A stretch of DNA of 64,000 nucleotides from Octopus sinensis (lineage: Eukaryota), in NCBI RefSeq assembly GCF_006345805.1, contig NC_043011.1, positions 36,158,464 to 36,222,463 of the forward strand. The letters are read 5' to 3'. The position numbers and the translations under genes were made by a program. Positions 11,057-29,851 of the stretch are shown here, piece after piece; positions within the stretch are counted from its first letter, which is position 1, and each line of letters begins with the position of its first letter. The notes under the pieces are model-generated. The model saw nothing but the letters and a program-made list of their open reading frames with translations. It was not told the origin of the DNA and ran no database searches.

Positions 11057-11957
11057 ATATACATATATATACATATAAGTATACATACACACATATACAT
11101 ACGTACATATACATACACACACATACACATATATGTGTGTGCCTTTTTATACAAACATGGACAATAGGACTCAATGCAAAAAAGTGAGTACGTTTTATTA
11201 TGTTGTAGCACTTATGCTTCTGATGTAGCTATAACAAAATTACATACAAGTTCATGTGGATGCATCAAAACTTATAATCAAACAATGGCTCCCTCTGCAA
11301 GAATAGCACAAGGATAGTTCCAATAGTTTTAGATAGTAATTATCATTTTAAGAAGATCTACTTATGTTCATCTGTTAAAGTGAGCAAACAGCTTACAGCT
11401 TTCTTATAAACAAGGCAGAAAGTTGCAACAATTTTTCTCATTTGTGTCTCATTATATAGACATATTAATTAAAAATCAAAATATTAAAGCAGCAGCTGAT
11501 GGATAAATTGTGAATCAGTTCATATATCTCTTCCTCCTTCAATGTAAATAACTGGGATGCGGATAGCTGGCAGAAACGTTAGCATGCCAAAGAAACTCTA
11601 AAATGATGCATGGGCACTCTGTAGCAGAAACAGTTGTATGCTAAAGAAGGTGATGATGTAATTCTCATTCTCTTGTCAGTCTTTTAATTTCATATATATA
11701 TACAGTTGCAGCCAAAATGTCAGAATGGCATTGTTTTCGTCAGAAAAGTAGGTACAATTTATTATCAAAGTTGTTTTATATTCTATAATTTTCACAGACA
11801 ATAAATACAATATTATTTGTTATTGTCTGAGATTCTGGTGTAATTTGAGAGGATAATACAAAAGTTATGGATGATTTAGTGATTTACTGCAAAACCCTTG
11901 GCAGCCAAAATGATCAGAACGGTTGAAAAAATAACAAAATAATCAAAAATGACAGAG

Positions 11958-23859: not shown

Positions 23860-24220
23860 TGTGGTGACATTCACCCTGGGCGGGTTGAGTCGGCTTCTTC
23901 CACCACCCTTGAGGCATTGTATTTACCATTGAGAATTCATGGAAGAAGTTTCGTGGTAATATGTCGATTTGACAAGCAGTCCCCATCAATCCCACTTGTA
24001 GAGATATCCTGTTTACTGCAGATTCTCCACAGACGTAGGGGCAGAACGACTGAGGAGCTGCCAGTTGCCGAAACAGACACTCCGAGGATGACCCTAATAC
24101 CACTCAGTGTCAGACCAATCCGCCTTAGGTGGCCCTACCAGGAACCGAAGTTCCCGACGGCATAGCTCTGACACTACCCATTGCCAGCGTCCCCACCACG
24201 GTGAGGAGGGGATGGACTTT
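23860..24220 (-). mobile_element. RTE/BovB-like LINE 5' UTR fragment
   Basis: GC-richer block with CGTGGTGGGG...GAGCTATGCC...GGTAGGGCCACCTAAGGCGGA..GGTC, resembling the conserved 5' UTR motif of RTE elements (recalled, not searched). Confidence 0.6.
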
Positions 24221-24224
24221 GAGG

Positions 24225-24423
24225 ATTTCCCATAGAAGTTCCGCAAAATGGTGTCCAAGGCCCTGTCATAGGCTTCTACATCTTCAAAATTACTGTTTTT
24301 GAGGTTCTCCTTCAGCTTGTAGAACAACCAGAAGTCACAGGGAGCAAGGTCTGGACTGTAGGAAGGGTGAAAGACAGTTTTGATCCACATCTCTGTCAAA
24401 TACTTGGTTTCCAGGATGCTCAC
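24225..24423 (-). pseudogene. mariner transposase C-terminal fragment
   Basis: HPSYSPDLAPCDFWLF. Confidence 0.85.
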
Positions 24424-24535
24424 TGAGTACCCTGGGAAGCTGCATGCTTAATGTCTTTACAGATAATTTCTTTACAGGTCTTTACTGGTCTTCATCCAGA
24501 AAATTGCAACTTTTCTCAACCATTCTATATATAAA

Positions 24536-24694
24536 ATATCCACAATGAGAATGACAAATATCAAACCACAGAAAGAGTTTGTATGAGATGCACATAATCT
24601 GATGCCTCTCCTAAAAAATTCTCAAAACTTCTGGAAGGCATCTCATATAAACTCTTTCCGTGGCTTGATATTCATCATTCTCATTATGGATGTT
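24536..24694. repeat. Fold-back with ~55-bp arms (MITE-like)
   Basis: 24536-24592 is the reverse complement of 24639-24694 with a few mismatches. Confidence 0.8.
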
Positions 24695-24986
24695 TTTGAT
24701 TATATTCACATCCAGTGAAGAAAAATAATGTCTCAAATCTTTGAATGAATTTTAATGTAGCTTTAAAGTTTATCTAAAAATATTTTATCATAGAACAAAG
24801 AGGAAACTTGCTAGCTCAAGGTTTCTAAGCCTTTTAACAAATATATCTTGTATTTCAAATATCTAAACAAAGCTATTTAATACAAAGAATAAAAAAAAGG
24901 TCTCCCCCTCTCCACCAATTTTATTAGCATACGAAATGATATTTTATGACATTTTTATTTGCTAATCAGTTTTACACAATATTAAA

Positions 24987-25374: not shown

Positions 25375-25890
25375 TTGTATATAAAAAGAGATTGCACTAT
25401 TTGATGATGATGATGATGATTAACTCCGTTTCAACTTTGATCAAGCAAACCATATACCAAAAGCATTGCCCTTGTGATCATTCCACTTCTTTTTCTTTTT
25501 GCTTTGTTTCTTTTTCATGTGTACGTATATAATCCATCATCATCAGCACCAGCATCATTTAATTGCCATTTTTTATGCAGTGATGGGTTGGATGATTTAA
25601 CAGAAACAAATGAGCCACAGGACTGTGCCAAGCTACAGTGACTTCTTCAATATGGTTTCTATGGATGGATACTCCACCTAATGACAACCATTTCACAGAA
25701 TGTGGATGCATTTTATCTCAGGACACTGGCACTGGTGAGGTTGCCAAGAAACTTCCAAGACAAAGAAAAAGAATAAGAAACCTCTGCAACAAAGTGAAGT
25801 TGTAGTGTAGACCCCAGTCGAACCATACAACCCATGCTAGCATGGAAAATGGACGTTAAACGATGATGATGATATATATATATATATATA

Positions 25891-26706
25891 TTTCAACAAT
25901 TGAGGGTAAAATTAATTAATTTATTATTAATCAATTTCACCAAGTGTTCAGTATGTAAAGGGACCATTTAAGGCGAATTCAAAATATTACATTTTATAAA
26001 GGGCTTAGTAAAAAAATTACTTTGCCACATACTGAACTCATTAGAAATAGCAGCCAAAAAAAATTTTTTTAGCCATTTCTAATACTTAAAGAAAATTTCT
26101 CTCAGATAGTGTTTACTCAAAAAATAACCCACGAAGGTATGCGGGTAAAAACATTAAAAAATCACAAGTGCAAAGATTATTTGAGAACGTACGTTTCTAG
26201 ATCAGCCAAAATACAATTCGACATTTCTTTCGTCAGCTCAAAATTTCTTAATTCGGATTTGTAAACACTGAAAGTAGGAGCATACCCTTTTGGCGACTTT
26301 TCACCTCCGAAGATCCGTTCAAACTAACAGTGCCAACAAATTCAAAATATGCAAGCGAAGAATTTCTGCCTTCCCCTTCCACCCATGTGGGCTAAACTAG
26401 CAAACACCATGTTTTATCAGTGAAAACCGAAGCATTAAACAGAGAGAAATGAATTATAATTTCAACAATTGAGGGTAAAATTAATTAATTTATTATTAAT
26501 CAATTTCACCAAGTGTTCAGTATGTAAAGGGACCATTTAAGGCGAATTCAAAATATTACATTTTATAAAGGGCTTAGTAAAAAAATTACTTTGCCACATT
26601 GTTGAAATTATAATTCATTTCTCTCTGTTTAATGCTTCGGTTTTCACCGATAAAACATGGTGTTTGCTAGTTTAGCCCACGTGGGTGGAAGGGGAAGGCA
26701 AAAATT
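25891..26706 (-). mobile_element. Non-coding Penelope-like/retrozyme-like element: 569-bp monomer, 140-bp tandem repeat and 109-bp inverted copy, in (TA)n
   Basis: 25891-26030 = 26460-26599; 26598-26706 = reverse complement of 26361-26469; contains a hammerhead motif. Confidence 0.8.
26180..26242 (-). ncRNA. Type I hammerhead ribozyme motif
   Basis: UUUGAG-CUGACGA-[32-nt stem II]-GAAA-CGUACG-UU-CUCAAA; 6-bp stem I, palindromic stem III, GUU site. Confidence 0.75.
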
Positions 26707-26906
26707 ATATATATATATATATATAAGTTAAAGGTGTTTAAACCCTCTAAGGGAGAGATGTTTACTTCAGCATGGTACACAGAAACAGCTGTAAACTTGC
26801 TCTTACTCTCACCTTGCTTAACCAATTAAATAATGGATTTTTAACACCATAGACACTCTTGTCATTGTTGTTTTTCCTCCATTTTCTTATCGTATATATA
26901 TATATA

Positions 26907-27155
26907 TCATCATCATCATCATCATCATCATCGTTTAACGTCTGCTTTCCATGCTAGCATGGGTTGGACGATTTGACTGCAGACTGGGAAACAGATGGCT
27001 GCACCAGGCTCCAATCTGATTTGGCAGAGTTTCTACAGCTTGATGCCCTTCCTAACGCCAACCACTCCAAGAGTATAGTGGGTGCTTTTATGTGCCGCTG
27101 GCACGAGGGCTAGTCAGGCGGTACAGGCAACGGATATGCTCAAATGGTGTTTTTT
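26907..27155 (-). mobile_element. Family C retroposon
   Basis: (CAT)n-CGTTTAACGTCTGCTTTCCATGCTAGCATGGG... Confidence 0.8.
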
Positions 27156-27157
27156 AA

Positions 27158-27201
<44 letters not shown>

Positions 27202-27208
<7 letters not shown>

Positions 27209-27477
27209 ATATTTTGGAATGGTCATTTTGCCAGTTTAGCCAATAAAAACACACGCACTATATATTTGGTGTTATTTTGCTTCAGTGTTATTCATTTTTT
27301 ACATTAATCTTAATCGGCCGAAATAAGATTAAGATTAATGTAAAAAATAAAAACACTGAAGCAAAGTAACACCAAATATATAGTGCATGTGTTTTTATTG
27401 GCTAAACTGGCAAAATAACCATTCCGAAATACAACAATATCTGTTTCAACACACGACTTCACATAAAAAAATCTTGC

Positions 27478-27483: not shown

Positions 27484-27515
<32 letters not shown>

Positions 27516-27516
<1 letters not shown>

Positions 27517-27915
27517 TTATCCGTAATAATGAAGGGTGAAATTAATTAATTTGGAATAATTATCAATTACACCAAGTAGTCTTCGGCATGTAAAAGCCTC
27601 ATTCGAGGAAAATTTAAGTAATACTAAGCAATAAAGGGTTTAGCAACGAATTGCCTTACCACATACCGAATTTAGAAATAGCAGTCAAAGAGTTATAGCT
27701 ATTTCTTCTACTAAAAAGGGAGATCTCAGTAAAAACAGCAATTGGAAGGCAGACACAAACAGGTAAGAGAGAATGAATTGACGGCAATCTATCATACAAT
27801 TTTAAGTTATCTACGGACGTACGTTTCGAAATCAAGTTTTTAGGAAAGCATAAGAATTAAATATTAAATAATTCTATCTTACCAAAAACTTCTTTTCTCT
27901 TCAGCGTAGAATACT
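27516..27915 (-). mobile_element. Non-coding Penelope-like element related to 25891-26706, in (TA)n
   Basis: Shared blocks GGGT.AAATTAATTAATTT, TCAATT.CACCAAGT, ATAAAGGG.TTAG, CCACATAC.GAA, TTAGAAATAGCAG. Confidence 0.75.
27810..27910 (-). ncRNA. Type I hammerhead ribozyme motif with extended stem II
   Basis: UCUACG-CUGAAGA-GAAA...UUUC-GAAA-CGUACG-UC-CGUAGA; complete core, G-C closure, GUC site. Confidence 0.85.
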
Positions 27916-27951
27916 ATATATATATATATATATAATATATATATATAGATA

Positions 27952-28779
27952 CACGAGATCTGATCAATTAGTATCTGGACTGTTGGCATAGTAACGAACT
28001 TACACTGTGCAGATTGAATCCACTTGGCATAAATTGACCTTGATCTCTGTTGTGCATGTGCATTAAGTTTTAACATTCTAGTTCACTTCTGCTGTCTACA
28101 AAATGCTTGGAAGGAAGATGTGTAACATGTGATCGTCGGATTGACCATGACAGAGAAAGTTGTCATAGCGATACCTGCTCAGAGGCCTATGCAAAGTTAC
28201 AGAAAGTGTATGGAGAGAAGTGTATGAGCTGCATACAATTGAATGAGTGGTTCAGACATTTCCAAGATGGTTGAAAAAATGTCAATATTGACCAACATTC
28301 TGGGAGACCTGCAACCAGCAGAACTGAGAAAAACAAAAACATCATGGATGTGCAAACAGCTGTGAGAGGAAATCAGTGAATTACCATCTGTGTGTTATTA
28401 GAAGTTCAGTCCATTATTACTGAAGATTTTGGTATGAGATGCTTGTCTGCCAAGTTTGTGTTGGAACTGTTTTCAGCTGACCAAAACGACACTGGAGTTT
28501 CATTTGCACAAGACACCTTGATTGTGTCAAGAACGATGTAAACTTTTTGGAAACTTTGTGTAGGCCTCGACTTTCTCTGTCATGGTCAATGCGATGATCA
28601 CATGCTACACACCTTCCTTCCAAGCACTGCTGTAAACAGCAGAAGTAAGCTAGAATGTTAAAACTCAGTTTGCATGCACAGCAGAGGTTGTGGTCCATCT
28701 GTGTCAAGTGGCCTCACTCTGTGTGCTTTAGCTTCGTTACTATAGCAACAGTTTGGATACTTATTGACCAGACCATATG
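27952..28779 (+). mobile_element. mariner-derived non-autonomous element with ~210-bp inverted arms
   Basis: TA-flanked; 27952-28163 inverted at 28567-28779; internal DTCSEAYAKLQKVYGEKCMS..EWFRHFQDG..HSGRP (transposase HTH). Confidence 0.85.
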
Positions 28780-29851
28780 TATACATGCACACACACATAT
28801 ACACACACATACACGCATATATATATATATATGTACGACAGGCTTCTTTCAGTTTCTATCTTCCATATAAACTTGAAAAACTTTGGTAAGCCCAGCACCA
28901 TGGAAGAAGACACATACCTAAGGTTCCATGCAGTGGGACTGAATCCAGAACCATATGGCTGTGAAGCAATTGTCTAGCTACATAGCATAATAACTTTTAA
29001 TAAATTGTATTCATCTTGGCATTTGGAAACATCCATATCTCAAACAATGAGATTGGCTATATATAAGGATAAAGGGAAATTTTCTGAGACATCTTGCATA
29101 ATAACCTTTGATTATTCAGATTTACATATCATCAAACAATGTTAAGATTCACAAGAAAATACACTGCATTTTTTATCACTTATAAAAACAAAACTGACAA
29201 AAATTCAGAATAAAATATAAACAGAAAGACAAGAATTTACCAAAGCACATCAATAGAATGCTGCATGGCACTGATTATAACCATGTTCCGTAAGAATGAG
29301 ACATGGCTTTGATGTAGAATGTAGAAGTGGCTTCTTGGAATTGGACAAAATGTTAACAATGATGTAGACAAGGAATAAAGTGAAGATCAGTTGCAACTTT
29401 CATTCCATTGCCAAACTAATTTAATTAATATGACTAAAACTATCTTCTGTGACAAAGTTCAGAGGAAAAACAAAGTCTAATTAGATTTTGTCAGGTATCT
29501 TGCAGTAAATTTAAGAAGCACCTCAATGGATATGTATACATGACATGCAATCAGTATTCTGGTTTGGCATTTAGCTATGTGAAAGCTTTGTTCAATATTA
29601 ACAGATTCCTGGAGAGAATGGCAAGACAAAAGGCAGAGTGAAAAGATTTCTTGTCAACAGATGAGCAGTAAAAGCTATTAGCATTGAAAACAAAGAGTAA
29701 AATTATCGTCATTTTAATGTGTACTTTTCCATGCTTGTAAGGGTCAAATTAGAGCACGTTGGAACAAAGTTTTCTTTGACCAGTTGACTTCTTGTCACCG
29801 CATCCCCTTGTCTCAATATACGGCAATAATTTCTTTGTTTCATCATTGTCG

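Follow-up and report, generated by a model that had tools for sequence, protein, structure and literature searches.

A (TA)n-inserted hammerhead repeat family of Octopus sinensis with two fixed start sites, probably mobilised by a Penelope-like enzyme

How does a non-coding, hammerhead-bearing tandem repeat come to lie in a genome as slightly more than one unit followed by an inverted piece of itself? The question arises from an insertion in the window, as we call the whole 64,000-nucleotide stretch of Octopus sinensis DNA analysed here. A preliminary description of the sequence had seen a recent insertion of a cDNA longer than one unit, copied from a tandem or circular RNA and followed by template switching. 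The whole insertion, a member of the family that we term R1, occupies 25891-26706 and consists of a long arm and a short inverted arm between two (TA)n runs. Unit coordinates (q) are counted from window position 25891 = q1, and the parts are as follows.

25872..25890, no strand: left (TA)n target repeat, read from the letters
25886..25895, plus strand: site A, the family's fixed outer end, with TA microhomology to the target repeat
25891..26599, plus strand: long arm of 709 bp in the inferred cDNA sense, starting at family site A and holding one full unit plus 140 bp
25891..26459, minus strand, taken as the RNA strand from the hammerhead strand and the folding z-score: R1 repeat unit
25984..25991, plus strand: site B, the family's second fixed outer end, internal in this copy and not an end there
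26180..26242, minus strand: type I hammerhead with a predicted cut at 26186/26185; stem III is palindromic, and an A-A opposition stands at the base of stem II
26460..26599, plus strand: 140-bp overrun into a second unit, identical to 25891-26030
26598..26706, minus strand: short inverted arm, unit positions 471-569 plus 1-10, with a 2-bp junction overlap and its outer end off site B
26707..26725, no strand: right (TA)n target repeat, read from the letters

The layout first described was reproduced throughout. The direct repeat of period 569 (25891-26030 against 26460-26599) agrees at 140/140 bases, or 141 with one flanking base; the fold-back arm (26361-26469 against 26598-26706) is 97% complementary over 109 nt, with 3 mismatches; and the two overlap by the 2 bp AT, the direct repeat ending at 26599 and the inverted arm starting at 26598. 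The absence of an ORF was also borne out, the longest stop-to-stop frame in the unit being 63 codons long and without a Pfam match. That the insertion is recent can be said with moderate confidence only: the direct repeats are identical, but the arms differ at 3/109 bases, two of the three differences being CpG-type changes in the long arm. Full-unit matches in the genome put the usual R1 unit at about 561-565 bp, and the 569-bp period of the window copy is due to longer homopolymer runs, one of them inside the hammerhead. What the preliminary description had passed over is that the insertion belongs to a family, that this family has a (TA)n target and two start sites at fixed positions, and that a sister element lies 800 bp downstream. 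A target-site duplication is unreadable inside (TA)n.

The surroundings are themselves rich in repeats. A very abundant repeat, with (GAT)n/(TA)n at its end, flanks the insertion in two inverted copies (25815-25873 and 26921-26979), and the left target repeat is the tail of one of these copies. Three more inverted-repeat elements, with arms of 59-152 nt, lie nearby (24533-24696, 27201-27440 and 27949-28782), and a weak DDE_3 match on the minus strand (24094-24447, E 0.0017, below the cut-off) is likely a decayed DNA transposase.

The hammerhead was recovered on the minus strand by reading the pattern, with a 6-bp stem I, the core CUGACGA plus GAAA, cleavage predicted after GUU, and the A-A opposition as first described; Rfam at gathering score returned 0 matches in the window, hammerhead included. 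The A facing A and the GUU cut triplet recur together in 103/103 pattern-matched R1 hammerheads, and the opposition is also found in two sister families. As read from these copies, the opposition is not decay. Among the extracted R1 hammerheads 41/56 are identical. In one diverged copy the two opposed bases are both U, as they are in a PLE (Penelope-like element) ribozyme of this genome; in an axolotl retrozyme, a U-U mismatch at the base of stem II goes with weak cleavage of the single ribozyme and good cleavage of the dimer (PMC7229834; here and below, papers are cited for the portions of their text available to us). Set against the minimal PLE hammerhead definition (PMC4209133), the ribozyme carries an extra base on both sides, and the pair after these bases is A-U in R1 and G-C in R3 and R5. 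The 50 hammerhead columns hold 0 diagnostic variants (p 0.024), with private changes at a near-normal level (0.63% versus 0.80%). From its core, stems and conservation, the R1 ribozyme is predicted to be self-cutting.

Searching the R1 unit against its own genome gave 2,434 first-look candidates; the 40 of these that were scored yielded 131 matches of 88-100% identity, many of them in head-to-tail arrays of about 563 bp. Two more searches and sequence retrieval provided 130 stretches, which came down to 69 distinct loci once duplicates had been dropped, together with arms below 85% identity and clusters lying less than 80 nt from the edge of their stretch. These loci lie on many contigs, as dispersed copies showing mobility, and represent 70 insertions, one locus being a duplicated pair that was counted twice. 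The sample was not drawn at random: it holds the best-scoring part of the family, and q1 (site A) was the starting point of two of the three queries. R1 is non-coding, low in GC and without LTR-type structure, and carries one type I hammerhead per tandem unit. Since the 26459/26460 junction recurs at many loci and no mapped R1 copy runs into a PLE ORF—nor does any arm continue into PLE coding sequence—the first reading escapes both of the refutations foreseen for it, and the recurrent junction, together with arrays that reach four or more units, supports its cDNA of more than unit length from a tandem or circular RNA. At one locus, L109 (G000 C7, about 111945950-111949440), a whole two-arm insertion is tandemly duplicated with a spacer of about 100 bp, and both copies carry the same internal deletion.

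Two facing arms, each reading in the plus sense from its outer end inwards, make up 45/70 R1 insertions. We classed the outer ends as A (q560-5), B (q85-103) or other. The 45 insertions then comprise 37 A+B, 4 A+other (the class of the window copy, whose short arm has its outer end at q471), 4 B+other, and 0 A+A or B+B, an absence of same-site pairs with a binomial p of 1.5e-11 against equal use of the sites. The sampling was less apt to pick up B+B insertions, most queries having started from site A; of the two absences, that of A+A is the firm one. The 25 single-arm copies start at A in 16 cases, at B in 8 and elsewhere in 1. Sites A and B lie about 93-100 nt apart in R1, and this interval is the tail found at one end only. 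On both flanks (TA)n is present at 42/44 two-arm R1 loci, and the template at the outer ends offers TATA or ATAT as microhomology to the target repeat.

Inverted ends with TA flanks are MITE-like, and the duplication at L109 embraces an entire two-arm insertion; both would suit an origin at the DNA level, as a satellite or fold-back (MITE-like) element produced by local duplication, slippage or a DNA transposase. We nevertheless regard such an origin as very improbable. The two ends of R1 are unlike (A versus B) and the inversion point is different at every locus, which sets R1 apart from MITE and fold-back elements; single-arm truncated copies are also common, and partial units end anywhere.

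The inner ends of the arms are scattered: 5/115 lie no more than 6 nt from the ribozyme cut, where 2.6 would be expected, and 59/90 arms traverse the cut site. Both arms exceed one unit in six A+B insertions, and the longer arm, which can be either one, reaches 2.3-2.4 kb. In four insertions each arm has at least 15 nt missing from the other, and these arms are therefore not self-copies. At the inversion junctions, 23/34 filler-free cases overlap by at least 2 nt, against 20% by chance, although these overlaps were taken from BLAST ends and may be inflated relative to the exact null; 11 more junctions contain filler.

These structures bear on the template switching first proposed for the inversion. 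For the family at large the proposal is less well supported: in most cases the inverted arm has its outer end at a fixed site of its own, and at times it holds sequence that the other arm lacks, which points to a second, separately primed cDNA. For the window copy it can be kept, because the long arm there contains the whole of the short one, whose outer end is off site, so that a fold-back is possible. Extended to all copies, the idea would be that a single cDNA folds back or switches template onto itself and that the fixed second end is made later by endonuclease resolution; 'EN-mediated resolution' has been put forward in PMC8557442 and self-priming in PMC3846280. Most arm pairs are indeed nested, 41/45 failing a test of mutual exclusivity, the two arms share a haplotype as a self-copy would, and a cut-based origin would likewise yield one tailed and one untailed end. 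Even so, we judge this explanation improbable for R1. It is at odds with the four non-nested insertions and with a longer arm that can be on either side; single-arm copies starting at both sites fit it poorly; the structure around the sites folds better on the RNA strand and keeps its G-U pairs there; and in vitro the PLE tail equals the interval between two RT starts (PMC11167929).

What kind of template was copied can be approached through variation among loci. Diagnostic columns were defined by a minor allele at no fewer than 4 loci, leaving out CpG and end columns. Discordance at these columns amounts to 3.2% within arms and 4.1% between arms, against 30% between loci; without homopolymer edges the values are 10/1031 (1.0%), 24/1026 (2.3%) and 30.6%. 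In multi-unit loci, 145 shared variants are fixed in all units against 13 that are mosaic, and 36 rare variants are fixed across all units of a locus, 20 of these in at least three units. The low discordance and the fixation of variants therefore indicate that the arms and units of one insertion represent one haplotype. Such a pattern would be expected from repeated copying of one monomer circle, and also from a young homogeneous array or from template jumps.

A linear template is the corresponding alternative: the same enzyme and the same twin priming would act on an uncut multimer of a young array or on monomers joined by template jumps, a scheme that departs only in its second step from the mechanism that we prefer below. 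We consider it unlikely, though it has a good deal to recommend it. No circle has been observed, a young source array would also have identical units, and the GUU triplet and the A-A opposition may weaken the R1 ribozyme. Moreover, hammerhead cleavage proved dispensable for insertion in vitro (PMC11167929), and 8/9 Xenopus retrozyme dimers are without cleavage (bioRxiv 10.64898/2026.07.22.740005). Against it, inherited variation specific to single units is as rare as the mosaic class above, which suggests a bottleneck of one unit in each round, and the hammerhead is conserved across subfamilies.

The region around the two start sites is predicted to be structured in the RNA.

25905..25941, minus strand: predicted hairpin, ending 14 nt before site A in the RNA sense; the alignment fold did not recover it
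25947..26036, minus strand: predicted three-way junction, its closing helix of 10 bp pairing 26027-26036 with 25947-25956; its parts are a hairpin (26002-26026), a small hairpin (25963-25973) and a linker that holds site B

The unit has a folding z-score of -6.0 on the minus strand and -2.5 on the plus strand. When 8 rows from the 5 families are aligned, the fold that emerges unprompted is a three-way junction with 22 pairs. Both sides are changed in 5 of these pairs, and site B again lies in a linker. When the hairpin before site A was added by hand, 91% of cells paired, against 34-45% in slid controls, and the covariation score for the 8 rows from 5 families, with this hairpin included, was reached by 1/500 shuffles; R5 has no alignment over the hairpin, and relatedness inflates covariation scores. 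There is moderate support for a conserved RNA domain that would hold both A and B. The opposite-strand alignment folds at -12.8 against -16.9 kcal/mol, but one of its 8 rows lies on the wrong strand; because this control is weak, the strand argument rests on the unit folding z-score. The structure around the sites keeps G-U pairs on the RNA strand. For 13/21 diagnostic variants in the predicted stems, 96% of units or more still pair, and a change from U-A to C-G is seen once; diagnostic variants are no rarer in the paired columns of the single-sequence fold (21/328) than in the unpaired ones (16/189, p 0.38). The circular and linear folding energies (-154.0 and -159.1) are uninformative.

Four sister families, R2-R5, extend these observations, and one of them is present in the window itself.

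27511..27918, minus strand: R2 single-arm copy of a 592-bp unit, in (TA)n, starting at R2 site A, with a canonical hammerhead at 27810-27910

R2 has 1,217 candidates, the best copies being about 99% identical to each other, and is probably the younger family because of this identity of about 99% to its best relatives, which makes it the better choice for studying activity and polymorphism. R3, R4 and R5 were found with a profile of the shared region and have 1,500-2,400 candidates each. Their periods are close to 560 bp, 565 bp (one locus) and 630-670 bp, respectively, and R3 and R5 were each assigned a hammerhead, R4 not securely. The distance from A to B is about 104, 95-103, 98-108 and 122 nt in R2 to R5, respectively. 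Across 105 loci of these four families, the two-arm insertions comprise 28 A+B, 0 same-site and 8 off-site cases, a count restricted to insertions with both ends on the TA repeat inside the stretch and possibly including a few duplicates. Elsewhere, weak paired fold-back matches of the RNA model at L218 (6952-7273) may belong to a sixth, more distant sister family. Unrelated hammerhead repeats with a long stem II, several of them fold-back, were seen at L163/L164 (about 6776-8218 in L164), L168 (oriented 1274-2216) and L134/L179, and likewise as region matches at L234-L255; the genome seems to hold many such families.

With five families in hand, an artefact of assembly or of chimeric reads is scarcely credible. 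Long inverted repeats and homopolymer differences do occur in long-read assemblies, and no public contig was seen to bridge the inversion junction of the window. Such an artefact would have to produce fixed ends in five families, haplotypes specific to each locus, and CpG-type differences between the arms of the window copy, and the family is present in DNA-like runs of several samples. Its sequence also occurs in assembled contigs of two runs that we guess to be RNA, an occurrence to which we give no weight as evidence.

We also examined the PLEs of this genome as potential partners. GIY-YIG matches were scored for 147 of 5,029 candidates, and intact open frames of 775-781 aa contain an RT and a C-terminal endonuclease; the cysteine motif before the endonuclease of these frames is ascribed to the Neptune and Nematis clades (PMC8557442). 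These PLEs terminate in (TA)n; some have tails, which measure about 35-38 nt as read by eye, and others have none. No partner PLE sharing the ends or the domain of R1 was found by BLAST and the RNA model in the sampled GIY-YIG-bearing stretches: in 68 and 30 endonuclease-bearing stretches (of 5,029 and 18,188 candidates), the model met only separate insertions of the small element, and PLE-like coding matches in 4/236 retrozyme-bearing sequences are separate insertions as well. A candidate chimera of an R1 arm and a PLE at L039 was rejected, as the two are separated by some 110 nt of another repeat, which has an inverted end of its own; a core-like motif at window position 11743 belongs to that intervening repeat and was not counted as a hammerhead. 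At L039 (2050-3130) there is also the GC-rich end of a PLE from a different clade, which carries a motif resembling a minimal hammerhead and likewise terminates in (TA)n. A young PLE family (L161-L175) has a separate upstream frame of 479 codons overlapping a 781-aa RT-endonuclease frame, and a pattern search found no clear hammerhead in its 3' repeat. By eye, the spacer before the short end of this PLE (L161-L180, L188, L202) resembles the spacer before R2 site A, and its 38-nt tail has a small palindrome 16 nt before the long end.

The best reading of these results is that R1 is a non-LTR retrozyme with a (TA)n target, probably inserted by a borrowed PLE RT-endonuclease that primes two cDNAs, one on each cut strand. 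A multi-unit copy would first be transcribed on the hammerhead strand. Neighbouring hammerheads, probably acting as dimers, would then cut the RNA to unit length, and ligation would close it to a circle; we hold it somewhat likely that a circular monomer is the template, the other forms being an uncut multimer or template jumps. In a third step, an enzyme dimer would bind the structured RNA domain with A and B, for which we have a predicted fold with some covariation. Both strands of (TA)n would next be nicked, each 3' end priming at one site through 2-5 nt of TA microhomology; the fixed ends, the target and the microhomology are observed, and the priming is deduced from them. Each cDNA would run a variable distance past the cut site, often for more than one round of the unit, and the cDNA 3' ends would finally be joined by 0-4 nt of microhomology or short filler to give the inversion, both steps being visible in their products. 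For the window copy, the second arm may have been primed at an off-site AT patch, or may have lost its outer part later.

Biochemical work on a related enzyme speaks for parts of this scheme: an anole PLE protein, purified and with a predicted dimeric form, nicks the two strands of its target and extends them, and the tail is the stretch between the two internal RNA sites at which it begins reverse transcription (PMC11167929). Other points weigh against it. In that in vitro system the starts are the same on both strands and not homologous to the target (PMC11167929), unlike the strict A/B pairing and TA microhomology of R1; the tails of about 35-38 nt on the PLEs of this genome contrast with the R1 tail of about 100 nt; and the short arm of the window copy is both nested and off site. 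A wider reading, which we offer tentatively and give a little less than an even chance, is that animal retrozyme circles are transposition templates, that a PLE dimer on one RNA domain primes both strands, one per site, and rolls round the circle, that the inverted repeats and one-sided tail of all PLEs are products of twin priming, and that the RNA fold sets the tail length.

How does R1 compare with known systems? It resembles metazoan non-LTR retrozymes (Cervera and de la Pena 2020, PMC7229834; Li et al. 2026, bioRxiv 10.64898/2026.07.22.740005) in its low-GC, non-coding tandem units with one type I hammerhead each, in its short palindromic stem III and lack of LTR features, and in a unit length inside their 51-972 bp range (bioRxiv 10.64898/2026.07.22.740005). 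Circles and cleavage have been demonstrated for those elements, whereas R1 is known from sequence alone. Retrozymes have been linked to PLEs by shared ribozymes, co-occurrence and pLTR similarity, with the mechanism of mobilisation left open in the accessible text of the same two papers; the inverted arms, fixed starts and microsatellite target of R1 are undescribed for retrozymes there, the words 'inverted' and 'microsatellite' having 0 occurrences in the available part of PMC7229834. With pLTR-bearing PLEs (PMC8557442, PMC3846280, PMC11167929), R1 shares partial tandems, an adjacent inverted truncated copy, an extension at one end, a (TA)n preference and a hammerhead upstream of the start sites. 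Unlike them, it has a unit that closes on itself, without an ORF for RT and GIY-YIG and hence outside the autonomous PLEs, and tails of about 93-122 nt in R1-R5 rather than 30-40 nt (PMC8557442, PMC3846280); strict A+B pairing, shared haplotypes and a conserved RNA junction are undescribed for PLEs in the portions of these three papers at hand. Non-autonomous Chlamys PLEs such as MRC1 are likewise non-coding, multicopy, head-to-tail and PLE-moved (PMC8557442), but Chlamys and Naiad have no canonical hammerhead, and their non-autonomous forms are similar to the 3' end of the autonomous ones, a kind of partner that was not found for R1 in the stretches sampled. By every feature tested, R1 belongs to the known retrozyme class; the long structured tail and the one-site-per-arm rule are new.

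A precedent for two arms is LINE-1 twin priming, in which two cDNAs from both target strands are joined by microhomology into an inversion. That process is occasional, with one primer at the poly(A) tail, the other variable, and arms without overlap. In R1 most insertions have twin arms, the arms overlap, and the two sites, both of them internal, are fixed. In the open-access literature we found no description of the R1-R5 families or of PLE twin priming, and as far as that literature goes, a PLE insertion signature on retrozymes, with a tail of about 100 nt, strict A+B pairing and an RNA junction, is unpublished.

Under the preferred reading of a PLE-inserted retrozyme, the insertion scars tie a tandem hammerhead repeat to PLE-type chemistry directly, beyond co-occurrence, and the strict one-site-per-arm rule leads one to expect an asymmetric dimer on one RNA molecule. 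With its starts mapped, an RNA of 563 nt makes it testable which enzyme moves animal retrozymes and by what priming, as well as how the inverted repeats and the one-sided tail of PLEs originate. For the octopus itself, five sister families with thousands of candidate copies, one of them about 99% identical, amount to an active source of palindromes in the genome.
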